The notes below the pieces were generated by a model. It searched no databases and was not told the origin of the DNA. It saw only the letters and a program-made list of their open reading frames with translations. A stretch of DNA of 64,000 nt, from assembly GCA_963514005.1 (NCBI GenBank), contig OY740792.1, positions 21,018,001 to 21,082,000 of the forward strand, read 5' to 3'. The position numbers and the translations under genes are program-made. The stretch is from Raja brachyura. Its lineage: Eukaryota. The number at the start of each line of letters is the position of its first letter. Within the stretch, counting starts at the first letter, position 1. Of this stretch, positions 10,060 through 63,973 are shown piece after piece.

Positions 10060-10299
10060 GTAAGTTCATTTATGAACTTTTTTTCAAAGCTTGTGAACAT
10101 AACAAATAGGGATAGATGAGGACCATTTGGCAGCTCATGCTTGCTAATGTTCAATGATAATATAGCTGCCTTTTTACCTGCGTTAACTTCATTCCTTGGT
10201 ACTCTTAACATCAAAAAATCAGTAGCTGTCTTGAGTACACTCAGCAACTGAACTCCACAGTTCTCTGGGCAGATAATTTTGAAGACTCCCTAACCTTTG

Positions 10300-43200: not shown

Positions 43201-43391
43201 ATGTTTTTAATGTGCAATGTTGCATCTTAGATTTCTTTAAAATGAATATACCTTAAGGATAAAACACAAATTGTAAATCATCAAAATAACAGAATTCTAG
43301 AATGGGTTACATAACATATTATCAAACCTATCAATTCTGCATAACATTGTGTAGCATCATTACTATTCACACCACAATTTACCACTAGTAC

Positions 43392-43481
43392 CTGTGAATT
43401 TCTTGTCTTCTATGTGGTCAATCTCAGAAACAGGGGTTGGAATAAACACATGTGAAGTGTCAGAGATTGGCAGTTTATGGT
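43392..43481 (-). CDS. Repeat exon, 90 nt, phase 1-1: DHKLPISDTSHVFIPTPVSEIDHIEDKKFT
   Basis: Acceptor tttctttgtcatcctttacag|, donor cag|gtacta. Prototype short repeat. Confidence 0.88.
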
Positions 43482-44081
43482 CTGTAAAGGATGACAAAGA
43501 AACCAAATACAAATCTTGTGTCTTTACCCAGTAGTGTAATAACCTGCCTATTTTGGCATCTGAAACATTTGTGACTGTTTTTGTATTGGATCAATATGTT
43601 TATTTCAATATAGCCAATGAATTGATAAGAAATCTGAATGTTTTATCTCCAACAAAAGCTGTGGACCACCGATGATATTCCTGGTACATATTATTATAGA
43701 CAGTTATTCTATCTGATTTCTTGCACTAGTTTTGAACTTAAACCAAACTGGTCTTTTATATTTCATACATTATTCACCCTAAAGACCACTTGTTAATGAT
43801 TCCATAATATCTCATGCACATCAGCTTTGCCATAGTTAAAATGCTCTGCTGCAGCAGTTTAATTTAATATGGTCAAATATAAATAATTACCAAGCAAACT
43901 TCAAGCAAATTGATGTGGATAATTCTATCAAATTAATTGTATAAATGTACTTAAATTGTTGGACACAACAGCTAATAGAAAAAAGATCATGCAAATGCAA
44001 AAAGGTGAATGTGCATTAAATTTCTTCCATGGTCAGTATTTACAGCACTTATTATTTAGAGCCTGATAGCTTTTTGAATAC

Positions 44082-44162
44082 CTGTCTGTTGTTTCTCTCC
44101 TGCATTATAAACATGGGTTGGATTAGACAATTTTGCAGTCTTAGATGTTGAGAGTTCATGGT
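44082..44162 (-). CDS. Repeat exon, 81 nt, phase 1-1: DHELSTSKTAKLSNPTHVYNAGEKQQT
   Basis: Acceptor tttgttatttgttacag|, donor cag|gtattc. The DHELSTS start is shared with the 144-nt exons. Confidence 0.85.
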
Positions 44163-44459
44163 CTGTAACAAATAACAAATATACCAAATGAAATAAAGCA
44201 AGTGAAAAGCATGCAAGGGTGGTTGTGTGCACTTTTATAAATGTAGTGGCTATTGCAAAAGAATAAAGAAGCTTCCATGTAAAATTCTCCCAGTCCTCTC
44301 AGAGGAGAGATTTTATTCCAATCCAAATATCAAAACTTAGAAATACAGCTTTTGTTAGAAAAAAATGGATGTAATGGAGTCAGAGTTCTACAGCATAGCG
44401 ACACCCAAAACTTGACATCATGTGAGGTGAAGGGCCTGTTCCTGTGCTGGACTGTTCTA

Positions 44460-45650
44460 CGTTTGTAGTCAGTGTCTCAGCCAATGAAGACAAGCATGCC
44501 AAATGTCTTCTTCACCACCCTATATGTTAATGTCACCATTTTCAGTGAACTATGAATTTACATTCCAAGGTTTCTCTGTATATCAACACCCCCTGCTTCT
44601 TATTCTATATATTGTGCCATTATTTGACATCCCAAAATACATTCCCTCACAAGTGTCTTGATTAAATTCCACCTATCCACACAACTTTCTAGCTGATCTA
44701 TTCCTCTGGACCTTTAGACAAACTTATCTTTTGATATGCCTCCAAGTTAATGTCATCAATAAACTTACTAATCAGAAAACTTACATTCTCATCCACATAA
44801 TTCTCATCCAGTTATAGATGATAAACAACAAGGTCCCAATACTGATCCCCAATGTACACCATTGATTACTGACTTCCAATCAGAAAAACAACCCTCCACC
44901 ATCACCAAGCCAAATTTGGTTCCAATTTGTCAACACATATCAAATCCAACGTGCTTTATTCTTCCAAGCCATCCTAACATGTGGGACAAAAGCCTTTCAA
45001 CAGTTTGTGTATGTCATATATTCCCTACCTTCGTAGTTACCTCAAATAAACCCAAATAAATGTACAAGACAGGATTTCCCCTGCACAAAACCAAGCTGAC
45101 TCCTCGACTCCTCATACTCAGTCCCTAACTTTCCAAATGGGCATAAATCCTGCCCCATGAATTTTTTCTTCTATTACAGAAGTAAGGTCTGAGTTTCCTG
45201 GCTTAACCTTACAGTCTTTCTCGAAAAAGGGAATGACATTTGCTATCCTCCAGTTTTCTGGAACGTCATTCAAGGCTAGCAAAGATACACAACTCTCCTT
45301 GGAGCCCCAGCAAACACCTCCACTGCTCTTAATGTGATCTAAGAATATAATCCTATCAGGCCCAGGGCATTTAACTGACTTAATATGTTCCAAAATCCCC
45401 TTCCACATATAAACGTTACAAAATATCAACATATTCCTCCACTAACTCCTCTCTCTCCATCGTCTACATCTTGCTCAAGGTGAATACCGATGAGAAGTAT
45501 TCAATTAGGAACCCACTCATATCCTCTGGCTCTGCATGTAGATTTCTCAGAGAGATCACATTCTTTCGGAGTGCTCCTTTACTTTGAACGGTAAAGGTTT
45601 GAGGATTCACTGTAGTCCTGCTTGTTAAGGCCATTTCATGTCTCTTTTTT
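44460..45650 (-). mobile_element. Old CR1 LINE
   Basis: ORF 45118..45432 (KCPGPD...VPENWRIANVIPFFEK) and downstream RT remnants. Confidence 0.8.
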
Positions 45651-46669
45651 GACCTCCTAATTTGTTTTTTAATTTAAGATATATCATTGAGCGTTACATC
45701 AGAAATGAAGTAACCTTGTGCATGAATGACATACAATTCACATCATGAAGTGGGACTATCAACTTGCCCATCCAACCCTCAACTGGCTCGGTGGTATTAC
45801 TATAGTTGTACAAAATGACCAGAAAATTGCCTTTTTTTTCCTTACAGGGGAAAATATACATTTTCAGTTGCACAATGTTGAAAACACTCAGCAGCATATT
45901 AATTTCGTCTCTCTGTTATAGGACATTAATGTATCACCATTGCTGAATTGGCCCTATTATGACATCCTAAGGCCAAGCAATGAATTCAAATGTAACCATG
46001 CATAAAATATTCAAAATTATCTTTCAAATAATATCAAATCACAATAATGTTGTGGGCGACTGTACTGGTTGCAGGTTGAATACAACTTCCAACAACATTA
46101 ATACCAGTAATATCAAGATAATCGGCCGCGCGCTGTTAAATACAACCAGCGACTAATATTTTTGCAGACAATCAATAACAGCAACAAAAGTTAAACTTTC
46201 TCCTTGATGTTCACGACAATTACATTAGAAATATTCAAAGCAGAAGTGTACATGATTTAAATGGCAATAGACAATTCATGCATTAAGAAGTTGCATTACC
46301 ATCCAGCACACTACAACAAATCAGACACAACAATTCGACAAACACTTTATAGCCAAGCGCAGCATCTAAATTTCTCCAAATAAGATGTGCTGCACAAATA
46401 ATCCAACAGAGATAAGCAGAATCACTAATCCCATGAAATGAAGAGCAGTGTCATCATTTCATATAGTTTTTGTTACAAGTTGCAAGCAAGACAGTGCACG
46501 GACTTGTCAAATACATTCAGACACAAGTGAATTATACCACCATTCAATTATAAAATCATCAAATGGCATTTTAGAATGTGTCCTAAATTCATGTTACATA
46601 AGGGCATATTGCCATATACAGTTACTAGGTACTGATTTCCTAGATTCACAAAGGCACAAATATTGCCAG

Positions 46670-46765
46670 AATGTCAGCAAATCTTAGCAAATTCAGATTA
46701 GGAGATTCCAATCATCATCTCAGGAATGTCAATGACATTGACGAGGTTCAACTGGGCTGATTCAA
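46670..46765 (-). pseudogene. Heavily decayed relic of the repeat exon
   Basis: Flanked by the array's intron motifs (aaggcacaaatattgccagaa; ggaatccagatacaaaat) with internal atcttagca and ggaatgtca, but no intact splice sites. Confidence 0.5.
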
Positions 46766-47350
46766 GGGGTTAAGACGGAATCCAGATACAAAATCCTCAT
46801 GGTATTTTGATGAACATAGCAGTAGTACCAGGTATCATCACATTGTATCAATATACTACATTTGTTTTCATAATTTTAATATTGAAGTTAACCATGAATT
46901 AATATTAGTTTTGATATACTAAACTACGTTTAATAGAAAATGGTGACCAATTAATCGGTATTATTCGAGAAGAGTCATGTATGAGTAAAATAATGAAAAG
47001 TATGTGCTATATAATTTCCAATGCATGAAATCCAATCATTATTCAATAAACTTCTCAACAAAATAGTTCTCATCAGCAGACAGCACATTTACATCTAAGC
47101 CATGTGTAAACTCAATGAAATATGCACAATAACCCAACAAAAAGCAAAATACATAAGACAAAGACATAGAATTACAACGAATTGCTTACGTCACATGGGC
47201 CGTGATACAACATTGTAAGCTGCAAGCAATATAGTGCAATGGCAACCATAACTCAATTAACTGTAAAAGCGTGTGGTAGCACTTGCTGCATGTGCCCTAA
47301 ATTTCCATCATTATAACACAAGCTTAGGTCATAAATATTGTTAAAGGTAC

Positions 47351-47494
47351 CTGTACCTTCAGTATCACTTATCTTAGCATGCTCAGGTTCTGGGATTGGA
47401 TTGATCACATTAGCAATATCAGTGACTGGCAGCCCACCGTCAGGCATTAAAGTGAACACGTTAGTAGTAGCTTCTGAGATTTTCACCTCATGGT
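47351..47494 (-). CDS. Repeat exon, 144 nt: DHEVKISEATTNVFTLMPDGGLPVTDIANVINPIPEPEHAKISDTEGT
   Basis: Acceptor cttccttcttatctcttcag|, donor cag|gtacct. Overlaps ORF 47253..47486. Confidence 0.9.
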
Positions 47495-48027
47495 CTGAAG
47501 AGATAAGAAGGAAGCTGGATACAAAATACTGTTTTTCTCAGGTTTATTATTAGTTATTCTCATGATTAATATTGAATTAAAGGACTATTATGTACCATGT
47601 TCGCAAGTTTATTCTTATTCATTTCATATAATTAATTTGTCTAGATAGCGTGAAACCATGAACTAACCATTGTATAATACACCGTTTACCTGATTCATTC
47701 AATATTAACCAGCAATAGTATAACACAAAACAAATTTACTATCCAATAAACATTATAGCCATGAGCAGTTGATTAACAATTTTGTCCAAATAATCTGAAA
47801 AATATTTTAAAAATTGCTTAATTCCAAGACGCATTTAGTGAATTTCACAGTTAATTTAAACTGTGGCACGACTATCAAATGCACTTCACAAACCTGTAAC
47901 CTAAATACCAATAAAAAGGCATGGCCTAACTTTCTGCTACAGGTACATTTGTACAAACCTCAGTTTGTGTATATCAATTATTCCATTGCACAGTCCACGC
48001 TCAAGGCACAAATAGGGTCAGCCACAC

Positions 48028-48158
48028 CTGGAACCTTAGCATCCAAACTTAGAATTTCAGGACTCAATATGGTATTGCACACATTAGTAATATTAATGGC
48101 ATTTTTCAACCTGGGATATTACTAATATTAGGAGTGTCAGAGGTTGTCACCTTGTGAG
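48028..48158 (-). pseudogene. Pseudo-exon of the repeat family
   Basis: Acceptor position reads cttcAA instead of cAG. HKVTTSDTPNISNIPG is followed by TGA and a frameshift. Donor cag|gtgtgg. Confidence 0.7.
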
Positions 48159-48479
48159 TTGAAGGGATAAGAAAGAAAATAGTGTTTTGGACAAAAAAAT
48201 TGTGACAATGTTTTACAATTTGTCTTATTGTATATTCAAGTGGAACTATGAATAATATAAAAGTATCAAATTAACATGTTCACCACTTAAATTTAATGGT
48301 AATAAAAACATTACAGTGATATTGCCACTTCATGTCAATCATTGTATGGCAAATAATCATCACAAATTCATGGCCATGATTGGCTGACAATGTGCTGCCC
48401 AGCTAGAGTACAATGAGAATAAAATAATCACAATGCATGAAATTCCAGGAAACATCAATACTCAAAGCACAAATGCTTA

Positions 48480-48604
48480 TTCTCTGTTATCTGAGCACAA
48501 TCAGGTTCTAAACTTAATTATATTAGATGTATCAGTGACGAAGAAATCATGGTCTGGCTCTAAAATGACCAAATTTGTTGTGTCAGATGTTGGCATTTCA
48601 CAGT
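48480..48604 (-). pseudogene. Pseudo-exon of the repeat family
   Basis: Acceptor ctgtcag| is intact. DCEMPTSDTTNLVILEPDHDFFVTDTSNII is followed by a frameshift to TGA, and the donor region is deleted. Confidence 0.75.
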
Positions 48605-48819
48605 CTGACAGAATGCAAAGGAAGCATGATATACTGTAAATAAAGTTATCCTGAAGGATCTAACCCTGAAAATTACTTCTCATCCTTTATCCGGACTTAT
48701 GCACCATCTGGATTTGTTTTAAAGTGATACAAAAATGATAAAACACAGCATGCGTTGACAAATATCTTTCAACGAGCAGAGAAGAGCAGATTTTTGCCCC
48801 ATATCTCTCTCATCTATGT

Positions 48820-49510
48820 ACCAATGTACGTTCACACTCACTTCTTCTAACCTCATCTACTGCATTTTGGTGTTCCTGATGTGGCATCCTGTACATCAAC
48901 GAGACCAAGTGTATACTTGGCAACCATTTCGCTGAACACTTGCACTCAGTCCGCCATGGACTACTGGATGTCCCGGTTGCAAACTATTTTAACTCCCCTT
49001 CCCATTCCCACACTGGCCTCTTTGTCTTGGGCCTCCTCCATTGCCAGAGTGAGGCCACACACAAACTGGAGGAACAGCACCCCATATTCCCATTTGGGTA
49101 ATTTACAATCCAACAGTATGAACATTGAATTCTCCAATTTATGGTAACCTCTAACTAACTTACCCCAAACATCTCCCACTGCTCCACCCCTGTGCCCCAC
49201 CTGGACTCCCACCTATATGTACCCTCCCCCCTCCACCTACTTTTCTCCCTCTGGCTTCACATTCCACAACTCTTCAAACCTGTCTCACATCTGTTCTTAT
49301 CTCTGGCCTTTGTTCCAAATCCCTATTGCCTATGTCGCCCTATTGCCTCTCCCCTTTTCCAACCGCCATCTCCCCCTCTACAATCAGTCTGAAAAGTCCT
49401 GAAACAAAACGTCGGCTAACCATGTTTTCCAGTGCTGCTGCCTGACCTGCTGAGTTACTCCAGCACTTTGTGTCCTTTTGTGTATTAACCAACATCTGCA
49501 GTTCTTTGTT
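48820..49510 (+). mobile_element. Penelope-like element 3' part (GIY-YIG remnant)
   Basis: Decayed TSSNLIYCI..CGILYI.ETK..LGNHFAEHLHSV, plus the terminal motif ...gctgagttactccagcactttgtgt. Confidence 0.85.
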
Positions 49511-49514
49511 GCTA

Positions 49515-49935
49515 CCTATCCTAGTGTCTTTCAAACACTGTTATCGTACCTGGCTCAACTACCTCCTCTGGCAGCTCGTTCCATGTACCCACCACCCTCT
49601 CCGAGTGGAAAACGTCACCCCTCAGTTTCCTATTAAATGTTGTTCCTCTCTCCTTGAACCTATATCCTCTGGTTCTTGATTCCCTGAACCTGGCTAAAAG
49701 ATTGTGCATCCACACTTTCTATTCCCCTCATAATGTTATACGCCTCATCCCTCATCCTCCTACACTCCAATGAATAAAGTCCCAGTCTGTCCAACCTTTC
49801 CCTATTTTCAGGTCCTCAAGACCTGGCAATATCTTTGTAAATCTGCTTTGCATTTTTTCCAGCTTAATGACATCCTTCCTATTGCATGTCACTGAAACTG
49901 AACACAGTACTCCAATGAAGCGTCACCAACGTCTC
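49515..49935 (-). mobile_element. CR1 3' fragment
   Basis: ORF 49521..49715 reads ESRTRGYRFK...FHSERVVGTWNELPEEVVE. Confidence 0.8.
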
Positions 49936-49939
49936 CAAT

Positions 49940-50480
49940 TACTCATCAATATCTTGGTTTGACAACTGCTTAGCCCCAAGACCGCAGGAAGTAGCAGAGA
50001 TTTGTGCATGCAGCCCAGTCAATCATGCAAGCACAACTTCCCCTTCCCATCACCACCATTGCCTCCATCTACCACACGCTGCCTCAGGAAAGCAGCCAAT
50101 ATAATTAACGTCCACCTACATCCACTTCATTCTCTCTTCTTCCCTCTCCCGTTGGGGAGATGAAACAAAAGATTTAAAGCATGTAACACCAGATTCTAGA
50201 ACAGCACTATCCCTGTTATTATCCCTTCCTTGAAGAGACCTTGAAAAAATGAAGCAGCGCTGCTGATCTCCCCATCTACCTCATGGTGGCTCTTGCACTT
50301 TCTATTGTCACCACTTTCTCTGTAGCTGCAACAATATGTTTTGCACTATGTTTCCTTTCTCTTTTAGCATTACTTATACACATTTATGACTTGATTGTAC
50401 TTGTGTATAGTATAATTTGACTGGTTAGTATGCAAAATAACGTTTTTTACTATATCTCTGTACATGTGATAATACACATG
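49940..50480 (+). mobile_element. Rex1-like LINE 3' fragment
   Basis: Remnant cgctgcctcaggaaagcagccaatataatt...ctcttctcccctctcccgttgggg (RCLRKAANII...LFSPLP.G). Confidence 0.6.
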
Positions 50481-50682
50481 ATTTCAAGAGTAAGAAGCTC
50501 TATGTTGCTCATTTCATACTGTTTGTGACATTGAATAAGTCGCATGCATGTTAATTTCTTAACTATCAAAAATACTTTGCACCCATTGAACAGTAAGGCA
50601 GCAATTCTACAAGTAAGGTAATTTCTTGTCACCTTATAACAAACCTCAACACGAAAAGCATACATATGTTTGGCAGAAGTAC

Positions 50683-50823
50683 CTTTAACTTCAGTATCTT
50701 TTACATTAGCACGTTCAGGTTCTGGGATTGGATTGATCGTATTAGGAGTATCAGTGAGTGGCAGCACATAGTTCGGCATTAATGTGACCACAAACGGAAT
50801 ATCTGAGCTTGGCACCTCATCAT
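50683..50823 (-). CDS. Repeat exon, 141 nt: DDEVPSSDIPFVVTLMPNYVLPLTDTPNTINPIPEPERANVKDTEVK
   Basis: Acceptor ccttccttcttatctctttag|, donor aag|gtactt. Confidence 0.9.
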
Positions 50824-50973
50824 CTAAAGAGATAAGAAGGAAGGCAGAGAGAAAATGTGTAGTCTCACAAGGAAATTATACGTGTTGTTTAAATGAACAG
50901 TTTTGAATTCCTGCAATAAAAGGAATATAATTTAATTAATAATGATACTTTGCACACAATTGTCAAATAGATA

Positions 50974-52601
50974 CAGTGTCCTCCATAATGTTTGGGACAA
51001 AGATCCATCATTTATCTATTTGCCACTGTACTCCACAATTTGAGATTTGTAATAGAAAATATCACATGTGGTTAAAGTGCACATTGTCAGATTTTATTTA
51101 AGGCAATTTTTATACATTATGGTTTCACCATGTAGAAATTATAGTTGTATTTATACATAGTTCCCCCCCATTTCAGGGCACCATAATGCTTTGGACACAT
51201 GAGTTCACAGGCGTTTGTAATTGCTCAGGTGTGTTTAACTGCCTCCTTAATGCAGGTATAAGAGAGCTCTCAGCACCTAGTCTTTCCATCACCTTCGGAA
51301 ACTTTTACTGCTGTTTATCAACATGAGGACCAAAGTTGTGCCAATGAAAGTCAAATAAGCCATTATGAGACTGAGAAACAAGCATAAAACTGTTAGAGAA
51401 ATCAGCCAAACCTTAGGCTTACCAAAATCAACTGTTTGGAACATCATTAATAAGAAAGAGAGCACTGGTGAGCTTACTACTCGCAAAGGGACTGGCAGGC
51501 TAAGGAAGAACTCCACAACTGTTCCTCTCTATAATAATGAAAAATCCCCAAACACCTGTCCGACAGATCAAAAACACTCTTAAGGAGTCAGGTGTGGATT
51601 GTCAATGACCACTGTCGGCAGAAGACTTCATGAACAGAAATACAGAGGCTACACTGCAAGATACAAACCACAGGTTAGCCGCAAAAATAGGATGGCCAGG
51701 TAAATGTTTGCCAAGAAGTACTTAAAAGAGCAACCACAGTTCTGAAAAAAGGTCTTGTGGACAGATGAGATGAAGATGAAATTATATCAGAGTGATGGCA
51801 AGAACAAAGTATGGAGGACAGAAGGAACTGTCCAAGATCCAAAGCATACCACCTTATCTGTGAAACACGGTGCTGGGGGTGTTATAGCCTGGGCATGTAT
51901 GGCTGCTGAAGGTACTGGCTCAATTATCTTCATTGATGATACATCTGCTGATGATAGTAGCATAATTAATTCTGAAGTGTATATACACATCCTACCTGCT
52001 CAAGTTCAAACAAATCCCTCAATACTCATTGGCCGGTGGTTCATTCTACAGCAAGACAATGATCCCAAACATACTGTTAAAGCAACAAAGGAGTTTTTCA
52101 AACCTAAAAAAGGTCAATTCTTGAGTGGCCGTCAATCACCCGATCTGAACCCAATTATGCATGCCTTTTATATGCTGAAGAGAAAACTGAAGGGGACTAG
52201 CCCCCAAAACAAGCATAAGCTAAAGATGGATGCAATTAAGCCCTGGCTGAGAATCACCAGAGAAGACACCCAGCAACTGGTGATGTCCATGAATCGCAGA
52301 CTTCAAGCAGTCATTGCATGCAAAGTCAATGGAACAAAATACTAAGCATGGCTTCTTTCATTTCCATGACATTGCTGTGTCTCAAACATTATGGTGCTCT
52401 GAAATGGGGGGACTATGTATAAACACTGCTTTAATTTCAACATGGTGAAACCAAAACGTATAAAAATGGCCTTTAGTAAAATCTGATAATGTGCACTTTA
52501 TCCACATGTGATTTTTTTTCTATTACAACTCTCAAATTGTTTAGTACAGAGGCAAATAAATAAATGATGGGTCTTTGTCCCAAACATTATGGAGGGCATT
52601 G
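50974..52601 (+). mobile_element. Full-length inactive Tc1-family transposon (IR/DR type)
   Basis: TA TSDs at 50972-73 and 52602-03. TIRs of ~225 bp begin cagtgtcctccataatgtttgggac and contain inner direct repeats. A transposase remnant lies inside. Confidence 0.97.
51323..52345 (+). pseudogene. Tc1 transposase pseudogene
   Basis: HTH region (TVREISQTLGLPKSTVWNII), WTDE, QQDNDPKH and SPDLNPIM (catalytic E replaced). Premature stops and frameshifts. Confidence 0.93.
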
Positions 52602-53388
52602 TATGTCTTACCTATTTAATTTGAAATTATTCACAAAGCATAATATAGCACCAGGAAATCCATGAAGCAGGATTGCTGCCATTTGAGAAACACAATTTTT
52701 CCATCCAGTCGCAATGATTGGTTAGCACAAAACAAAGCCACTATTTCCAATTATGTAAGAATGTTGCCCAAATGATAGAGGCATCCAACACAAAAACAGG
52801 TTTTTATCCTACCAGGTCGACACCAACCATCAAATACTTAACCATACCAATCCCATTTATCAATACTTGATCTCCAACCTTCTATGCTGCCTAGAAACAT
52901 CATATTGCAGCCATCCATTGGATGGATCCACCTCCCCCCCAATATCCTCACTAACCCTCTTACTCCCCCACATTAAACTATTATTATTAAATCCCATCAA
53001 TTAGCACCAGACCCAATTTACCAGTTAATCAACGTTGTTCTGTTACCCAAGACTATTCTCCTTACTGTCAACAAACCTATTTACTCTCATCAGTATTCCG
53101 TTTCTTAACTGTCTTTTTTATCACATGCCTAAGATTCCAACATCAACATCTGATGCAGATAAGCAAAAGATTTATTCATTCAAGGATTGCCTTGTCATGT
53201 CAATTTGACTCAACATTAAACAGGTTATAAACATGAATACTTGCAACTTTAACACAGATTTAACTGTAAAAGCTTGTACAGCATCTGGCCTAAGTTTCTG
53301 GCACTTTTATAGAAACCTCAGCGTGAACTTATTCTTATTTAATCTATTTCTCAATACACACTCAAAGCACAAATGTTATCTAAGGTAC

Positions 53389-53511
53389 CTGCAACTTTAA
53401 TATCTATATCTTCAGACTTGGTTATGGGATTGAGGATATTAGGAATGTCAGTAGCTTGTGGATCAGAGTCTGGGATTAAACTGAACATGTTAGAAGTTGG
53501 CACCTCATGGT
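53389..53511 (-). CDS. Repeat exon, 123 nt: DHEVPTSNMFSLIPDSDPQATDIPNILNPITKSEDIDIKVA
   Basis: Acceptor cttcttcttattccctcag|, donor cag|gtacct. Carries in-frame deletions relative to the 141-nt unit. Confidence 0.88.
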
Positions 53512-54139
53512 CTGAGGGAATAAGAAGAAGCCAGGTACAAATTTTAATCTTGCCCGAAAATGTTTTTACATCATTTTGATGTACACAATTGTATTACTGT
53601 ACATTATTACATTGCAACAACATAGATTAATTAATCGAACTACTATATTACTAAATGTATTCATGTCAAGTGATGAACTGCACTAATTGGTAATACATTT
53701 TTACAGTACCAAACTAATCGAATGTTATGCCTAATTAATCCAAGTTACTCAAAATGATTTAAACAAATGGTGTGACAATAGATAAACCATGCAGTAATAT
53801 TTTTCCACTATGAATAATACTTTTTAACACCACAATACTCAAAAAGAGTAATTAAACAACAGACACTCCATGCAGCAGCAATGTTCATACTACAAAAAAG
53901 TGATTTATCATTTAATAAACATTACAACAGAATAGCTGAGAGCTAGTTGAATTCCATGCAGGTTGTGTATGGATAATCACAGACACTTTGCAGACAAGTA
54001 ATCCAAACAAACATTTAACAGTGTACACATGGAATAGCAGCTTCAGAACGTTGCTTAACAATCTGGTACGTTGGCACAATCCTCTCCCTGCACATGGTTA
54101 TTTATTCTTAAACTCATTTTCAAGACAAAAGTATTGCCA

Positions 54140-54249
54140 TTAGTCTGATTTTGATTTAGGGATTGGATTGATTACAATAGGAATGTTACTAAATACTAGA
54201 TCAGAGCCCAAGTTTAAACTATACAGGGTAGGAGGCACAATGGTTGCCT
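54140..54249 (-). pseudogene. Truncated relic exon: EATIVPPTLYSLNLGSDLVFSNIPIVINPIPKSKSD*
   Basis: The VINPIP motif is retained, but there is an in-frame TAA, no donor and a weak acceptor. Confidence 0.65.
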
Positions 54250-55180
54250 CTATTGACTTTTCATGGACTCTATAATGGTGTAGCATAAACCTCTACATAT
54301 TTTCAAACCATTTGGTACATGGATAGGAAAGACTAATTGACGGAAAGAGGGATATGGGCCAAAAACAGGCAAATTTGTGTCTAGCTTAGCTGGGTCTTAA
54401 ATTCATTTTAGAGTGTCAATGTGTTTTGGATCTTAAATGTAATATAATTATTTTGCAAATGTGTATTGATTTTTTTTAACAAATTCAAAGTGTTGCTGCC
54501 AATTTGCAAATGCCCAACAGATTCAGTCAACAACAGCTGACATATTGACATTAAATAAGCTTTCAAAGACATCCTGTGTGTGCAGTGAGCTGTCTATGCA
54601 CAGACTCAGTTGGTAGTTATGCCAAGGCACTGGGAGCTGAGACTTTGTAAACACTGGGTCAGGGACCATGCTGGAACTGTATAACCCCGGGGCATGTAGC
54701 CAGTGATTTCAGCGCAATAAAAAATGTGCCCCAATTATTGATTAATTCATTCAATAATACGGCAATAAAATCTGATATATATGGAATAATGAGAGAGTTC
54801 ATGAGCAACATACTTTCCACTATGTCACAGCTAATTATTACTTGATACATTTTTCAACAATATTGTCATTGGAGAATGAACAAACACTTCACAGCTACGC
54901 AATCCCTAAACTCAGTAAAATAAGGACATTGACAAAATAACCTAACAAAGGTAAGCATAAAGTACAAATTTTAAGAAATATGAAGTGGATTTCCCTTAAA
55001 CGGTGCCACAACATTAAATGAGCTGCATGCAAGACAGGATGTTGGTATATTTTACATACATGCAATGTGAACACTGATTGCACGGGGATTGTGTGGCATA
55101 GCATTAAAAGCATGCGCGCTAAACTTCTACTGCTTTAGCACATACCTCAACAGCCAAGGAACAAATATTGGCAGAAATAC

Positions 55181-55321
55181 CTGTAACGTCAAAATCTTTT
55201 ATCTTAGCGCGCTCAGTTTCTGGGATTGGATTGATCACATTAGGAGTATCAGAAACCAGAGGGTTTAGGCCTGATATTAAAGTAAGCACTTTAGGAGTGC
55301 GAGAAGTTGAAACCACGTGGT
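55181..55321 (-). CDS. Repeat exon, 141 nt: DHVVSTSRTPKVLTLISGLNPLVSDTPNVINPIPETERAKIKDFDVT
   Basis: Acceptor tgttttttatcccttcag|, donor cag|gtattt. Confidence 0.9.
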
Positions 55322-55902
55322 CTGAAGGGATAAAAAACAGAATTCTTATTTTCTGAATCTATGTTGTTTCTGTGAATAATATTGAAAATGCTAGGCACCA
55401 TTGTTATCTAGTGATGCAGCACATCTGGTCTTCTTACAGTGTAATAAAACTAAATATTCAAAACTCATGTAAAGATGAATAATACTTTTCATAAAGTGCT
55501 AAATCAAATGAACATAATGCATTGCCTCATGAACTCAACATTATTCAAATTGTCGGATATAAGAACAGATGCTCCATGCCACAAAATAGCCAAGATAGGT
55601 TTATAGACTTTTATAGCCGATAAAGCAAGGGTCTCTAAAAGTCATGAAATAAGAAGCATGGCCAAATAATTCAACAAAGATATTTAAATGCTCTCTTCCA
55701 GGAAAAATGCAACAGTGTGTTCATTTCCAGTATTTGCAATGAAACTGAACAGTTGCCTGTAGACAGATTATTGTCAAATACTTGTTATGCACTGGCAACT
55801 TGAACAATAGTTTTAATGGCAGTGTTCCTACAGCACATGTTCTTTGTCTTTTTAGCTCAAACCTCACAATCCATCACTAATTATATACTCAATCAGAAGT
55901 AC

Positions 55903-56042
55903 CTGTAACTTTGATATAGCCTGTCTTAATAACTTCAGATTTAGGATTTGGAGTGAACACAATAGGAATGTTTGTGACTGAAAACTCAAAGACTGGAATT
56001 AAATTTAATGCATTAGAATGTCAGAGATCATCACATCCTGAC
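55903..56042 (-). pseudogene. Pseudo-exon (140 nt, acceptor AG>GG, 1-nt deletion)
   Basis: Acceptor position reads cccctcGG. GQDVMISDI then shifts frame into NALNLIPVFEFSVTNIPIVFTPNPKSEVIKTGYIKVT. Donor cag|gtactt is intact. Confidence 0.75.
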
Positions 56043-56647
56043 CCGAGGGGATAAAATGGAACTAAATGTCCAATTTAATTACTATTTAACAAAAATAATA
56101 AAACATTGTTTTGATCGACATCAGTATGGGGAGTATAACTGAACCTTTCTTCATTCTGAGAATATGAAGTGAATTTCATTGCAACCATGAATTGTGACTC
56201 TGGTACTATTGTCGTTGCAGCATTGTACAATTAAATCAGTATTTCTCAAAGTTATTCATATAAAAATGTTACAACTACATACAGTTACAACATTTTCACC
56301 TTTCAAATGGAACTACCGTTTAAGTAATTTTCCCAACAACACAGCAGTGATTTGCTCTGGACTCAAAACTCCAAGAAAATAATTTTGTTGTCAAAATAAC
56401 CTCAAACTAAATGCATACATTTCAGGAGGAGATATGCGATGGGCTGTTATGTTTATAGATGCTTTGGCATGTTACTGAATAATTGTATGCAAGATAATGT
56501 ATTCCGCAATAAAATTACTTCACATACAAGTAACTTGAAGATGAATTTAACAGAAAAATGATGGCATAGATTTTATAGCATGTGTCAAAAAATTCTGCCA
56601 CTCTAGCAATTAGGTAAATTCCCAAGTGAAAGTATTGTCAGAAGTAC

Positions 56648-56779
56648 CTGCAACTTCTGTATCTCTCAAACTAGTTCGTTGAGATTCTAGGATTGGATCG
56701 ATCACATGAGTAACCGGCAGCTCATGGTTTAACATTAAAGTAAACACTTTACTAGTGTCCGAGGTTGGCACCACCTGGT
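56648..56779 (-). CDS. Repeat exon, 132 nt: DQVVPTSDTSKVFTLMLNHELPVTHVIDPILESQRTSLRDTEVA
   Basis: Acceptor cttcttccttgtcccgagcag| (GAGCAG tandem), donor cag|gtactt. Confidence 0.87.
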
Positions 56780-57282
56780 CTGCTCGGGACAAGGAAGAAG
56801 CCAGGTACAAAATTCTTAATCTTGCATGATAATGCATGAACTTTCATAAATTAATTATATTCCATTATAGAGCATTGTCATTATTACATAGCAATCTTGC
56901 ATGGCTCCCACTGTCTCACCACAACCTCCTTATCCCTACTATCTTTACACCAGATCTATTTATTATTTCCTAATGGTTCCAAGGCCTTAACATCCCTGTT
57001 GAAATGTGATATCTGAATTTTCTGAACTATGCAACATAATAACTAATTAAGTAAAAGTACAAGTAAATTCCCAGGCAATATGGAAGATTAGTCGTTTCCT
57101 GTTATGTTATGTAAGCTGTTATATTGGCCATTAATTATTTTACACAGGAGCAATGCAAATAATGTGAGACAGATCTACAACATAAAAAATAATTTCCTGT
57201 TATTTTAACAGGCATCTCAACATGCAGATTGTTTTTGCTCTTGCTGCAGTTTACAGTAAGGCACAAACATTATCAGAAATAC

Positions 57283-57429
57283 CTGTTATTTCTGTATCTT
57301 CTATTTTAGTAGTGTCAGACGCGTGGATGGCATTGGGAACATTTGAAATGTCAGTGACAGGTACGTTAATGTCTGAGATTAAACAGAAGATGTTAGGGAT
57401 GTTAGAGGTTGGCAACACAGTCCGCTGTA
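57283..57429 (-). CDS. Repeat exon, 147 nt: VQRTVLPTSNIPNIFCLISDINVPVTDISNVPNAIHASDTTKIEDTEIT
   Basis: Acceptor tcctgcttacttccag|, donor cag|gtattt, open frame. Confidence 0.8.
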
Positions 57430-58202
57430 CTGGAAGTAAGCAGGATATAAAATGTTCAAATTACATAATTATTGTTGAAAATTGAACATTACAATTACAT
57501 TGGATGGTTTCCAATGCGGCAATAAATGCCACAGGTAAAACAGATTTTATGTAACACAAAACTACCCCGACAATATAATTGATTAAGTTCACTAATTCAA
57601 TATCATTCAAAATAATTTAACGCACAACATTACAAGAGACTCTCCACACTGCAACATTACATTCATTATTTAGAGACTATTCATAATTCAATAAATCAGA
57701 AGAAACACCGACAGAATAGGTTAACACATCACTTCTCAAACAAACTCAAAGTTTTATGAAAAATGCCCATTTATTCCAGCATAGATGAGCAAAATGCTTA
57801 ACTCCAGGTGATATGCAGTGCATTTCCCAATTGACAATATCTGTACCAGAACACAGAGCAGATTGCATGTATTTTAGGATAGGTCTGCTAAAATCAAGGT
57901 CATGCATGGTGGAATGGGAAAAATGGGAATGTGGAAAATGATAGTGAGGCCCTGGGTTTGGCCAACAACGAAGAAGCAAATTAAGGAAAGATGTGTGCAG
58001 TAGGCTTGTTTTCCATACTCTTCCATACTTTACACACAACCAATACAAATTTTCACATAAATATTTATGTAAAAGCATAACATGGCATCTGTGGCACGTG
58101 TCCAGACTTTTTTCCTTAATTGTGATAAACCTAAGCATGCACTTTTAATTATTTGCTCCATTGCTTACTTTAAACATAAAATACACAGATTGTTAGAACT
58201 AC

Positions 58203-58346
58203 CTGTAACATCTGCCTCTCCTATCTTAGTAGGATCAGGTTCTGGGATTGCATTGATCACACTGGGAATGTCTGTAGCTTGCCGTTCATAGCCAGATATA
58301 AAAGGGAACACTGTAGTTGTGTGAGCAGTTGATAATTCATGGTCTT
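58203..58346 (-). CDS. Repeat exon, 144 nt: EDHELSTAHTTTVFPFISGYERQATDIPSVINAIPEPDPTKIGEADVT
   Basis: Acceptor ccctttcatccttag|, donor cag|gtagtt. Confidence 0.88.
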
Positions 58347-58820
58347 CTAAGGATGAAAGGGAAGCCAAATTACAAAATTCTAAATATCTTCTGATCATAC
58401 ACCTGCGCTAAGTTGTTTCCTATGTGTATTAGCTCATTGAACACTATCGTTATTTAATTATTTATACAGTATAGAACAACGTCCTCCAGCCCATTGAAAT
58501 TATACAAAACAGAGCGATCCCATTAGTCCCATACCACTGTTTTGTCCTTGCAGCAATCACTCACATCGTTGCTAACAATAACGAAGCAAGTTAAGGATAG
58601 ACATCTAAGGGTACAGTATGTTTGTGTTTTCCAGGCTCTTCCATGCCTTACACACAACCAACACAAATATTCGCGTAAATATTTATGTAAAAGCATAACA
58701 TGGCATCTGTGGCACGTGTCCAGACGTTTTTCCTGAATTGTGATAAACCTAAGCATGCACTTTTGATTATTTGCTCCATTGCATATTTCAAACATAGAAT
58801 ACACATATTGTTAGGACTAC

Positions 58821-58964
58821 CTGTAAATTCTGCCTCTCCTATCTTAGCAGGATCAGGTTCTGGGATTGGATTAATCACACTAGGAATGTCTGTGGCTTGC
58901 CGTTCATAGCCAGATATAAAAGAGAACACTGTAGTTGTGCGAGAAGTTGACAATTCATGGTTTT
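58821..58964 (-). CDS. Repeat exon, 144 nt: ENHELSTSRTTTVFSFISGYERQATDIPSVINPIPEPDPAKIGEAEFT
   Basis: Acceptor tttttaatccttag|, donor cag|gtagtc. Confidence 0.88.
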
Positions 58965-59451
58965 CTAAGGATTAAAAAGTAAGCCAAATTATAAAATTAC
59001 AAACATCTTCTGAATGTACACCTGCACTGAGTAGTTTCCTATGTATATTAGCACATTGAACTTTATCATTAGTTAATTATTTAATACAGTATAGAACAAA
59101 ATCATCCAGCTCACTTGAATTATATGAGATCAGAACCTAATAGAGCAATCCCATCAGTCTCATACCACCTCTTATTTCCTTGCAACAGGCTCTCACATTG
59201 TTTCCAACAACAAAGAAGCCAGTTAAGGAAAGGCATCTATGTGTAGAGTATGTTTGTGTTTTCCAGGCTCTTCCATGACTTACACACAACCAATACAAAT
59301 ATTCACATAAATATTCATGTAAAAGCATACCATGTCAACAGTGGCACGTGTCCAGATACTTCTCCTCAATTGTGATAAACATAAGCATGCACTTTTAATT
59401 ATTTGCTCCATGCTTACTTCAAACATAAAAAACACAGATTGTTAGAACTAC

Positions 59452-59595
59452 CTGTAACATCTGTCTCGACTATCTTAGTAGGATCGGATTCGGGGATTGG
59501 ATTGATCACACTGGGAATGTCTGTGGCTTGCCGTTCATAGCCAGATATTAAATTGAACACTTTAGTTGTGTGAGAAGTTGATAATTCATGGTCTT
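59452..59595 (-). CDS. Repeat exon, 144 nt: EDHELSTSHTTKVFNLISGYERQATDIPSVINPIPESDPTKIVETDVT
   Basis: Acceptor cctttttatccttag|, donor cag|gtagtt. Confidence 0.88.
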
Positions 59596-60075
59596 CTAAG
59601 GATAAAAAGGAAGCCAAATTACAACATTCGAAATATCTTCTGAACATAAACCTGCGCTAAGTAGTTTCCTATGTATATTAGCACATTGAACACTACCATT
59701 ACTTAATTATTTAATACAGTACGGAACAAAGTCATCCAGCTCATTTGAACGACACGAGAACCTAATAGAACTATCCCATCAGTCCCATACCCCCTCGTAT
59801 TTCCTTGCAACACTCACTCACATTGTCGTCAACAAGGACGAAGCAAGTTAAGGAAAGACCATAAGTGCACAGTATGTTTGTGTTTTCCAGGCTCTTCCAT
59901 GGGCTTACACACAACCAATCCAGATATTCATATAAATATTCATGTAAAAGCATAATGGCATCTGTGGCACATGTTCACAATTTTTTCCATAAATGTGATA
60001 AACCTAAGCATGCACTTTTGATGATTTGCTCCATTGCTTATTTCAAACATAGAATACACATATTGTTAGGACTAC

Positions 60076-60219
60076 CTGAAAATTCTGCCTCTCCTATCTT
60101 AGCAGGTTCAAGTTCTGGGATTGGTTTGATCACACTGGGAATGTCTGTGGCTTGCCGTTCATAGCCAGATATTAAAGAGAACACTGTAGTTGTGTGAGAA
60201 GTTGACAATTCATGGTCTT
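60076..60219 (-). CDS. Repeat exon, 144 nt: EDHELSTSHTTTVFSLISGYERQATDIPSVIKPIPELEPAKIGEAEFS
   Basis: Acceptor cctttttatccgtag|, donor cag|gtagtc. Confidence 0.88.
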
Positions 60220-60688
60220 CTACGGATAAAAAGGAAGCCAAGTTACAAAATTCTAAGCATCTTCTGAATGTACACCTGCGCTAAGTAGTTCCCTATGAAT
60301 ATTAGCTAATTGAAAATAATCATTACTTAATTATTTAATACAGTAAGGAACAAAGTCATCCAGCTCATTAGCATGATATGAGAACCAAACAGAGCGATCC
60401 CATCAGTCTCATACCGCCTCTTATTTCCTTGCAAGCCTCTCTCACATTGTCGCCAACAATGACGAAGCAAGTTAAGGAAAGACAGCTAAGTGTACACTAT
60501 GCTGTGTATTGCATGCTCTTCCATGACTCACACATAGCCAATACAAATATTCACATAAACACCTAGCATGCCATCTGTGGCACATGTCCAGAATTTTGTC
60601 CTTAATTGTGATAAACCTAAGCATGCACTTTTAATTATTTACTCCATTGCTTATTTCAAACATGGAATACACATATTGTCAGAACTAC

Positions 60689-60832
60689 CTGCAAATTCTG
60701 CCTCTCCTATCTTTGTAGGATCGGCTTCTGGGATTGGTTTGATCACACTGGGAATGTCTGTGGCTTGCCGTTCGTAGCCAGATATTAAAGAGAACACTGT
60801 AGTTGTGTGAGAAGTTGACAATTCATGGTCTT
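60689..60832 (-). CDS. Repeat exon, 144 nt: EDHELSTSHTTTVFSLISGYERQATDIPSVIKPIPEADPTKIGEAEFA
   Basis: Acceptor cctttttatccgtag|, donor cag|gtagtt. Confidence 0.88.
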
Positions 60833-61299
60833 CTACGGATAAAAAGGAAGCCAAGTTACAAAATTCTAAGCATCTTCTGAATGTACACCTGCACCAAGTA
60901 GTTTCCTATGAATATTAGCACATTGTAAATAATCATTACTTAATTATTTAATACAGTAAGGAACAGTCATCCAGCTCATTAGAATTATATGAAAACCAAA
61001 CCGAGCGATCCCATCAGTCTCATACCGCCTCTTATTTCCTTGCAACGCGCGCTCACATTGTCGCAAATAATGAGGAAACAAGTTAAGAAAAGACAGCTAA
61101 GTGTTCACTATGCAGTGTTTTGCATGCTCTTCCATGCTTTACACACAACCAATACAAATATTCACATAAACGCCTAGCATGGCATCTGTGGAACCTGTCC
61201 AGAAATGTTTCCTTAATTGTGATAAACCCAAGCATGCACTTTTAATTATTTACTCCATTGCTTATTTCAAACATGGAATACACGTATTGTTAGAACTAC

Positions 61300-61443
61300 C
61301 TGTAACATCTGCCTCTCCTACATTAGTAGGATCGGGTTCTGGGATTGGATTGATCACATTGGGAAGGTCTGTGGCTTGCCGTTCATAGCCAGATATTAAA
61401 GTGAACACTTTAGTCGTGTGTAAAGTTGATAATTCATGGTCTT
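61300..61443 (-). CDS. Repeat exon, 144 nt: EDHELSTLHTTKVFTLISGYERQATDLPNVINPIPEPDPTNVGEADVT
   Basis: Acceptor cctttttatccttag|, donor cag|gtagtt. Confidence 0.88.
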
Positions 61444-61508
61444 CTAAGGATAAAAAGGAAGCCAAATTACAAAATTCTAAATATATTCTGAACATACACC
61501 TGCGCTAA

Positions 61509-63420
61509 TAGACAATAGGTGCAGGAGTAGGCCATTTGGCCCCTCGAGCCAGCACCGCCATTCAATGTGATCATGGCTGATCATTCCCAATCAGTACCCC
61601 GTTCCTGCCTTCTCCCCATACCCCCTGACTCCGCCATTTTTAAGAGCTCTATTTAGCTCTCTCTTGAAAGCATCCAGAGGACCTGCCTCCACCGCCCTCT
61701 GAGGCAGAGAATTCCACAGACTCACCACTCTCTGTGAGAAAAAGAGTTTCCTCTTCTCCGTTCTAAATGGCTTACTCCTTATTCTTAAACTGTGGCCCCT
61801 GGTTCTGGACACCCCCAACACCGGGAACATGTTTCCTGCCTCTAGCATGTCCAAGCCCTTAACAATCTTATATGTTTCAATGAAATTCCTTCTCATCCTT
61901 CTAAACTCCAGAGTGTACAAGCCCAGCTGTGCCATTTTCTCAGCATATGACAGTCCTGCCATCCCAGGAATTAACCTTGTAAACCTATGCTGCACTCCCT
62001 CAATAGCAAGAATGTCCTTCCTCAAATTAGGGGACCAAAACTGCACACAATACTCCAGGTGCGGTCTCACTAGGGCTCTGTACAACTGCAGAAGGACCTC
62101 TTTGCTCCTATATTCGATTCCTCTTGTTATAAAGGCCAACATGCCATTCGCTTTCTTCACTGCCTGCTGTACCTGCATGCTTACTTTCATAGATTGATGT
62201 ACAAGGACCCCCAGATCCCGTTGTACTTCCCCTTTTCCCAACTTGACCCCATTTGGATAGTAATCTGCCTTCCTGTTTTTGCTACCAAAGTGGATAAGCT
62301 CACATTTATCCGCATTAAACTTCATCTGCCATGCATCTGCCCACTCCCCCAACCTGTACAAGTTACCCTGCATTCTCATAGCATCCTCCTCACAGTTCAC
62401 ACTGCCATCCAGCTTTGTGTCATCTGCAAATTTGCTAATGTTACTTTGAATCCCTTCATCCAAATCATTGATGTATATTGTAAATAGCTGCGGTCCCAGC
62501 ACCGTGCCTTGCGGTACCCCACTAGTCACTGCCTGCCATTCTGAAAGGGACCCATTAATCCCTACTCTTTGTTTCCTGTCTGCCAACCACTTCACTATTC
62601 ATGTCAGCACTCTACCCCCAATACCATGTGCCCTAATTTTGCCCACTAATCTCCTATGTGGCACTTTATCAAATACTTTCTGAAAGTCCAGGCACACTAC
62701 ATCCACTGGCTCTCCCTTGTCCATTTTCCTAGTTACATCTGCAAAAAATTCCAGAAGATTAGTCAAGCAGGATTTCCCCTTCGTAAATCCATGCCGACTC
62801 GGACTGATCCTGTTACTGCTATCCAAATGTGCGGCTATCTCATCTTTTATAATTGACTCCAGCATTTTCCCCACCACTGATGTCAGGCTAACTGGTCTAT
62901 AATTCCCCATTTTCTCTTTCCCGCCTTTCTTAAAAAGTGGGATAACATTAGCTACCCTCCAATCCACAGGAACTGACCCTCAGTCTATAGAACATTGGAA
63001 AATTATCACCAATGCATCCACGATTTCCAGAGCCACTTCCTTAAGTACCCTGGGATGCAGACCATCAGACCCTGGGGATTTATCAGCCTTCAGTCCCATC
63101 AGTCTCTCCAACACCATTTCCTGCCTAATGTGGATTTCCTTCCGTTCCCCTGTCACCCCAGATCCTCTGGCTACTACGATATCAGGAAGATTATTTGTGT
63201 CCTCCTTAGTGAAGACAGATCCAAAGTACCTGTTCAACTCATCTGCCATTTCCTTGTTCCTCATAATAAATTCACTTTTTTCAGTCTTCATGGGTCCAAC
63301 TTTGGTCTTAACTAATATTTTCCTCTTCACATACCTAAAGAAGCTTTCACTATCCTGCTTTATATTCTTAGCTAGCTTACCTTCGTACCTTATCTTTTCT
63401 CCCCGTATGGTCTTTTTGGT
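61509..63420 (-). mobile_element. Young CR1/HER1-type LINE inserted in an array intron
   Basis: ORFs 62980, 62599 and 61591 form one ORF2 frame broken by two TGA stops. Tail is ctattgtcta. The insertion splits the unit sequence gcgctaa|gtagtttcc. Confidence 0.97.
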
Positions 63421-63829
63421 TAAGTAGTTTCCTATGTATATTAGCATATTGAATACTATCATTATTTAATACAGTATGGGACAAAATCATCGAGCACATT
63501 TGAATGATACGAGAACCTAATAGAGCGATCCCATCAGTCCCATACCCCCTCGTATTTCCTTGCAACACTCACTCACATTGTTGCCAACAATGACGAAGCA
63601 AGTTAAGGAGAGACCATAACTGCACAGTATTTTGTGTTTTCCAGGCTCTTCCATGGGCTTACACACAACCAATCCAGATATTCATATAAATATTCATGTA
63701 AAAGCATAATGGCATCTGTGGCACATGTTCACACTTTTTTCCATAAATGTGATAAACCTAAGCATGCACTTTTGATGATTTGCTCCATTGCTTATTTCAA
63801 ACATAGAATACACATATTGTTAGGACTAC

Positions 63830-63973
63830 CTGAAAATTCTGCCTCTCCTATCTTAGCAGGTTCAAGTTCTGGGATTGGTTTGATCACACTGGGAATGTCT
63901 GTGGCTTGCCGTTCATAGCCAGATATTAAAGAGAACACTGTAGTTGTGTGAGAAGTTGACAATTCATGGTCTT
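63830..63973 (-). CDS. Repeat exon, 144 nt, same sequence as 60076..60219
   Basis: Acceptor cctttttatccgtag|, donor cag|gtagtc. Confidence 0.88.

Follow-up and report, generated by a model that had tools for sequence, protein, structure and literature searches.

We analyze 64,000 nucleotides (nt) of Raja brachyura DNA (assembly GCA_963514005.1, contig OY740792.1, positions 21,018,001 to 21,082,000; this whole stretch is called the window) and find that its minus strand is, judged by homology, the repeat stalk region of the skate ABI3BP (TARSH) gene. On this strand lies an extended series of short phase-1 exons: homologous tandem copies that share a single phase and have lengths divisible by three, such that adding or skipping any one of them keeps the reading frame. 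We consider it very probable that the stalk consists of symmetric phase-1 cassette exons that were born in tandem, some of them now dead and some half-dead. In sequence and annotation, the array exhibits tandem symmetric exons, lineage-specific gain and dead copies that are skipped in the gene models. An earlier note on positions 46,670 to 56,042 had proposed five dead exon copies interleaved with live ones. Intact exons (E) and dead copies, or relics (R), are listed in Table 1.

Gene identity and use of the intact exons

A splice-site scan trained on array exons recovered 20 open phase-1 exons bounded by an AG acceptor and a GT donor, from 63,973 to 29,298, and two extra stalk exons lie beyond these 20. 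A profile of ten exon translations matched 17 proteins, nearly all of them shark or ray ABI3BP/TARSH models, and further models from Amblyraja, Leucoraja and Rhinoraja came from a protein search that used the best representative, P0018; the matched proteins include ones named 'target of Nesh-SH3' or abi3bpa. The orthologues P0018 and P0039 have fn3 and TARSH_C (PF21731) domains around their repeat region, the corresponding exons lying outside the window. The window's exons are 75–100% identical to the three skate models, with lower identity to other rays and sharks, and the window is therefore assigned to the stalk region of a skate ABI3BP gene. Counterparts of the intact copies, at 75–98% identity, occur in the same order in the skate models, and the exon at 3.1k, with 22 of 22 residues the same as in Mobula ABI3BP, ties the array to this gene.

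The stalk contains 13% threonine, 11% proline, 8% serine and 15% acidic residues (nine exons counted). No Pfam family was found for the repeat (best expectation value, E, 0.039), and in the protein searches made here the 47-residue repeat was met only in sharks and rays. RefSeq labels for the gene vary because the repeat stalk dominates its sequence: mucin-2 in Leucoraja, FNDC1-like in Heterodontus and uncharacterized in several species. According to the available text of a review, from which the words 'exon', 'isoform' and 'splice' are absent, ABI3BP is a protein of the extracellular matrix whose function is largely unknown (PMC6426741), and nothing here demonstrates a new function for it.

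The array grows by tandem duplication of units that contain an exon and an intron. One exon is present in 11, 16 and 13 copies in the three skate models, in at least seven copies in the window and in one copy each in Hemitrygon and Mobula. Another, of which skates have one copy, numbers three in Hemitrygon and four in Mobula. The recent units in the window are about 620 base pairs (bp) long, with introns that are 5–19% diverged. The units at 63.9k and 60.2k (exons 63830-63973 and 60076-60219) stand three units apart, and they have identical exons and a 5% intron difference; the duplication is therefore recent, and the likeness suggests either duplication of a multi-unit block or gene conversion. 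Tandem Repeats Finder, with its period limit of 500, did not report the ~620-bp units. A CR1-type long interspersed nuclear element (LINE) reverse transcriptase fragment with few stops (61594-63465, minus strand) lies in the intron of the 63.9k unit and splits a 620-bp unit. NAGNAG tandem acceptors occur at the exons of 58203-63973 and at 56779-56782, and Rhinoraja isoforms differ by the one residue added.

We examined 21 RefSeq skate isoforms: 15 from Rhinoraja (15 of the 23 in the cluster), three from Leucoraja and three from Amblyraja. The intact exons are directly consecutive, and every relic is skipped, in all of them (15/15, 3/3 and 3/3, respectively). The models string consecutive intact copies together in one protein, and their isoforms vary by skipping one or several exons. 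A Dscam-type cluster of mutually exclusive exons, with one copy per mRNA, would likewise present homologous exons in tandem, similar in length and sharing a phase, but it would not join all intact copies in one protein or yield isoforms that differ by simple skipping. As consecutive copies co-occur in the models, we reject mutually exclusive splicing and give it next to no credence.

Four sequencing runs (X1, X2, X5 and X7) were compared with positions 43,300 to 58,450. X1 and X2, from organisms A and B that are possibly relatives, are guessed to be RNA (word share 0.07) and consist of contigs instead of reads, from which no inclusion levels are obtainable. The splice joint 43481/44082, with ends CT..AC that correspond to GT-AG, is recorded in X1 (116.7) and X2 (76) and is 0 in X5 and X7. 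Differences between X2 and the window at 55272 and 56748 have the contig depth of 30.7 and stand 50 and 32 letters from piece ends, which therefore coincide with the predicted acceptors at 55321 and 56779. At the contig depth of 30.7, the depths of four X2 bins correspond, to two decimals, to 31, 92, 141 and 90 nt of sequence. We infer that one spliced X2 contig spans the E57.4 core, E56.8, E55.3 and E53.5. Three further observations were recorded and not used as evidence: X2 has depth 0 in the bins over R46.7, R48.1 and R55.9, repeats confound its bins at R48.6 and R54.2, and X1 has no spliced cover of E53.5 to E56.8.

Dead copies and half-length survivors

A profile built from 14 exon-bearing regions was searched against the 64-kilobase (kb) window, and it recovered all five relics where the earlier note had placed them, with E values of 3.1e-21 (R55.9), 9.6e-08 (R54.2), 3.6e-17 (R48.6), 2.4e-11 (R48.1) and 1.8e-4 (R46.7). 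Their best local alignment scores (80.5–135.5) exceed the shuffle maxima (48.5–68; 100 shuffles each). Every profile match with E < 1 lies on the coding strand, with no inverted copies among them, and the same search across the window found no sixth relic at E < 1. The lesions that had been read in R48.1 (AG>AA, frameshifts), R48.6, R54.2 and R55.9 (AG>GG, 1-nt deletion) are seen in the alignments as well. Relics reach at most 47% identity to the skate models in alignments of at least 19 residues, and a protein search with the R48.6 frame gave no candidate match. In R54.2, R48.6 and R46.7, the donor was lost via a deletion of ~15–30 nt that spans the exon end (its size varies with the reference used); therefore, a single event can account for the loss of both site and frame in these relics. 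Compared to the window, a contig of DNA from organism D (run X5) has 23 additional letters somewhere within 47384-48949, and these might sit at the R48.6 donor deletion.

Some relics could have been kept for regulation, serving as poison exons or offering decoy splice sites. In R48.6, a stop comes after a strong acceptor, the pyrimidine tracts of R48.6 (14/17) and R48.1 (16/17) are retained, and DNA contigs of two other organisms cross all five relics at ~98% identity. However, this identity is the same as that of the surrounding intron, the relics are 29–45% diverged from the exon consensus versus 14–23% for copies with both ancestral sites, and R48.6, R48.1 and R46.7 have no in-frame path from an AG to a GT. 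We find such a role highly doubtful.

The 141-nt exon is composed of a 51-nt leader and a 90-nt core, where the leader duplicates the first 51 nt of the core. The self-match of long exons peaks at an offset of 51 nt in nine of nine tested (seven are close copies, leaving three independent cases), with 24–29 of 51 positions identical, and the 90-nt core resembles the short exons downstream in the array. An in-frame AG is present at the leader-core join in E57.4, R55.9, E55.3, E53.5 and R48.6. Hemitrygon and Stegostoma each have one isoform that lacks only the 17-residue leader of another long exon.

In E57.4, the ancestral acceptor has changed from AG to GG and a 2-nt gap is present; consequently, this exon is frame-broken like R55.9. 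The skate isoforms (21/21) and most Hemitrygon isoforms (18/20) use its core alone, and the leader is in none. Its internal acceptor at 57372 has 13 pyrimidines in 17 positions, compared to 10–11 in paralogues. By sequence comparison, E57.4 probably took the internal-AG route in skates and in a stingray. A 147-nt exon at 57429-57283 was considered as the used form and rejected, being a chance frame found in 0/21 skate isoforms. The earlier note had counted this length among its in-frame copies (123, 132, 141, 144 and 147 nt); all five are readable as open frames between AG and GT, but the 147-nt frame arises by chance and E47.5, readable as 144 nt, is 138 nt in the skate models. An AG, a GT and an open frame do not make a used exon: the 147-nt path and the R55.9 core possess all three and are absent from 21/21 skate isoforms.

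R55.9 retains an open 90-nt core between AG and GT (55992-55903). In three trees, the core groups with a short exon of Hemitrygon and Mobula (supports 99/94, 95/89 and 93/85), which is annotated in 18/20 Hemitrygon and 5/5 Mobula birostris isoforms and in 0/21 skate isoforms. The candidate orthology of the stingray short exon to E56.8 is ruled out (p-AU 0.018). With its AG, open frame and normal donor surviving, and with an orthologue in these rays, the R55.9 core may be alive in this species as a minor or tissue-specific cassette exon. We judge this unlikely: the core is missing from every skate isoform, its branch length is 0.42–0.51 whereas the copies in Hemitrygon and Mobula do not differ from one another, as decay predicts, and its internal acceptor has 10/17 pyrimidines versus 13/17 at the used site of E57.4. 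Instead, R55.9 appears to have lost its leader, survived as a core in the stingray-manta line and then died in skates, in an order of events that we infer. The orthology of the relics, which had been proposed as a check, is resolved for the R55.9 core alone among the five. An annotated exon without a counterpart in the skate models lies between the orthologues of E50.8 and E47.5 in Narcine, Hemitrygon (two copies) and Mobula; its position suggests R48.6 or R48.1, the two relics found in the matching interval of the window (47495-50682), as the orthologue, a choice that the tree does not resolve.

Reading frame, splice sites and selection

The earlier note had observed that every frame-broken copy has also lost a splice site, and it took this coupling as internal evidence that the intact copies are spliced and translated. 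The coupling holds for the five relics, four of which bear a separate frame lesion or stop on top of the site loss. A broken frame and a lost site do not equal death, however, as E57.4 has both lesions and is used as a 90-nt core. Two further points reduce the value of the coupling as evidence: one exon gave rise to seven of the intact copies by recent duplication, and donor-spanning deletions can hit the frame and the site together. The conclusion that intact copies are spliced keeps its support from the matches to skate models, from frames that are kept above the neutral expectation and from the skipping of relics in 21/21 isoforms.

When the seven young copies are counted once, six intact lineages are compared to five relics (Fisher p 0.002, in a table that assumes independence). 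As a neutral yardstick, we use the introns of the young ~620-bp units, which contain 15 gap events, compared to 0 indels in their exons. The downstream introns have 14 gaps versus 154 substitutions, with one gap of the 14 a multiple of three, and the Poisson probability of gap-free exons is 0.007. The p-distance in these units is 0.092 for exons versus 0.145 for introns. Under neutral decay simulated to the observed divergence, and conditional on intact sites, the six old copies would all still have an open frame with a probability of ~5e-9, an approximate value with the majority consensus taken as the ancestor.

The coupling could still be an artefact that the small sample, recent duplication and single deletions produce and that says nothing of expression, in which case some intact copies may be silent. 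Seven of the intact copies are young duplicates, two of them with identical exons, the donor-removing deletion also truncates the exon in three relics, and the ratio of nonsynonymous to synonymous substitution rates (dN/dS) is near 1. Counting the young copies once and simulating decay give the low probabilities above, though; the additional lesions of four relics are separate from the site loss, and the intact copies are present in annotated proteins of three skates. An artefact of this kind is, in our assessment, very unlikely.

Several observations weigh against the account of tandem-born cassette exons. The pooled dN/dS among young copies is 0.86, and among old copies the proportions of nonsynonymous (pN) and synonymous (pS) differences are near each other. 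Therefore, there is little amino-acid-level sign of function, and, with frames kept at such a ratio, selection appears to act on the frame and on splicing and little on residues. The 21 isoforms represent three annotations whose read support is not visible. X1 and X2 are only guessed to be RNA and their source organisms may not be the window's species, the 15 listed joints out of ~2050 include no joint inside 46670-56042, and the depth of the E56.8 bin in X2 is 8.29 versus 8.01 expected, which is unexplained. The trees use 29–46 columns, one of them places R55.9 on a long branch, and the orthologues of R54.2, R48.1 and R48.6 are unresolved by tree.

The mechanism that we propose for these cassette exons combines duplication with selective retention. 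Units would duplicate via unequal crossing-over or slippage, and selection would guard the frame and splicing far more than the amino acids. A copy that loses a splice site may drop out at little cost and then decay, and a copy that loses only its upstream acceptor may fall back on the internal AG and persist as a 90-nt exon. The encoded stalk is likely to form an extended, O-glycosylated spacer, variable in length, between an N-terminal FN3 and a C-terminal FN3/TARSH_C, as its composition suggests. A further-reaching idea is speculative, and we would sooner bet against it: the leader-core build would provide a spare in-frame acceptor, exons would die leader first and core later (E57.4 and R55.9 representing two stages), and rays and skates would set the length of a matrix spacer by this route together with runaway duplication of single exons, under selection and by tissue.

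Window features and known exon arrays

Table 1. Exons and relics of the array, in window coordinates
Feature	Position	Strand	Remarks
Seventh recent 144-nt exon	63830..63973	-	Identical to 60.2k exon; CR1-type LINE in the intron after it
Six recent ~620-bp tandem units	58203..61443	-	One 144-nt exon each
144-nt exons of the six units	58346-58203, 58964-58821, 59595-59452, 60219-60076, 60832-60689, 61443-61300	-	
E57.4 dead leader	57373..57429	-	AG>GG at 57423-57422, 2-nt gap; 0/21 skate isoforms
E57.4 core, live, 90 nt	57283..57372	-	Internal acceptor; 21/21 skate, 18/20 Hemitrygon isoforms; X2 bin depth matches 90 nt at contig depth 30.7
E56.8, live long exon, 132 nt	56648..56779	-	135 nt from NAGNAG acceptor; X2 piece end at 56779
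R55.9, relic, 140 nt	55903..56042	-	AG>GG at 56044-56043, 1-nt gap in leader, donor intact
E55.3, live long exon, 141 nt	55181..55321	-	In skate models; X2 piece end at 55321
R54.2, relic	54140..54267	-	Poor acceptor (candidate AGs before 54267, 54249), TAA at 54142, donor deleted
E53.5, live long exon, 123 nt	53389..53511	-	In-frame deletions; in skate models; exon-sized cover in run X2
E50.8, live long exon, 141 nt	50683..50823	-	98% identity to all three skate models
R48.6, relic	48480..48604	-	Acceptor intact, 5-nt gap, TGA at 48503, donor deleted
R48.1, relic	48028..48158	-	AG>AA at 48160-48159, frameshifts, stop at 48108, weak GTGTGG donor
E47.5, live long exon	47351..47494	-	Tandem donors at 47351 (144 nt) and 47357 (138 nt); 138-nt form in skate models
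R46.7, relic, most decayed	46665..46797	-	Altered acceptor region; stop in frame; donor lost by deletion
Two live short exons	44162-44082 (81 nt), 43481-43392 (90 nt)	-	Linked by splice joint 43481/44082 (X1, X2)
Five further short phase-1 exons	36398-36309, 33734-33651, 31557-31465, 30400-30311, 29378-29298	-	
Final pair of stalk exons within the window	7714-7655 (60 nt), 3136-3068 (69 nt)	-	

Transposons are found at several places in the window. An uninterrupted 1.57-kb CR1-type reverse transcriptase frame lies at 8718-10289 (minus strand), and further CR1 pieces are located near 527-937, 13.2-15.6k, 34.4-34.8k and 49.5-49.9k. A Tc1-type transposon at ~51100-52560 has a transposase that is partly open on the plus strand, and the opposite-strand joint 51018/52559 is consistent with Tc1 terminal inverted repeats. 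Fragments of another retroelement lacking long terminal repeats occupy 27455-29150 (minus strand), with zinc-finger and endonuclease-like stretches recognized by eye. An intronic 139-bp tandem duplicate is present at 967-1242, its two copies 95% alike.

The gain and loss of exons in repeat arrays is a process already known, and this locus is a tidy test case, not a new mechanism. A literature search that covered few subscription papers found no paper on the skate ABI3BP array or on leader-core fallback, and the comparisons below draw on partial texts of the cited papers. In Ectocarpus, 'inactivated exons' are described in introns for the ROCO leucine-rich repeat (LRR) and NB-ARC-TPR exons (Zambounis et al., PMC3341825). 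Both systems have one repeat per exon, a variable number of repeats and intronic dead copies with stops, frameshifts or lost splice sites. The Ectocarpus repeats are folded and ligand-binding, belong to multigene families, are often inverted and have been reported to be under positive selection (PMC3341825); in contrast, the skate array belongs to one gene, runs on the coding strand throughout, encodes a low-constraint stalk and has an internal acceptor that permits half-length survival. Diversifying selection as in Ectocarpus leaves no sign in the pooled dN/dS of the skate copies.

The exons of the caseins are mostly much smaller. Casein genes have grown by exon duplication and have lost exons in a species-specific manner, via donor mutation or a damaged pyrimidine tract, and the DNA of the lost exon remains in the intron, as it does for the skate relics (PMC6726744). 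The protein is a different one, and a leader-core structure is not seen in the available text of that paper. Animal genes commonly show tandem exon duplication that includes hidden copies, among them the vertebrate genes OBSCN and NEB (Ivanov and Pervouchine, PMC9013439), which share tandem duplicated exons and unannotated intronic copies with the skate array. The accessible part of PMC9013439 stresses mutually exclusive choice and expressed hidden copies and does not contain the word ABI3BP, whereas the skate copies are additive and most of the hidden ones are dead. Dscam1 resembles the array in its lineage-specific gain of tandem exon copies, but it picks one exon per cluster where the skate array includes many copies together; the portion of PMC3364881 on Dscam that was available contains nothing on dead exons.

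For annotation, the array carries a warning: an AG, a GT and an open frame are insufficient to call an exon live or to fix the ends of an exon. For the biology of these repeat genes, copies of one exon at four stages (newborn, old, half-dead and dead) coexist within a single gene, and orthologues occur in a number of sequenced sharks and rays. Such a series makes the order of exon loss testable: whether the splice site or the frame is lost first, and whether an exon is lost whole or by half.

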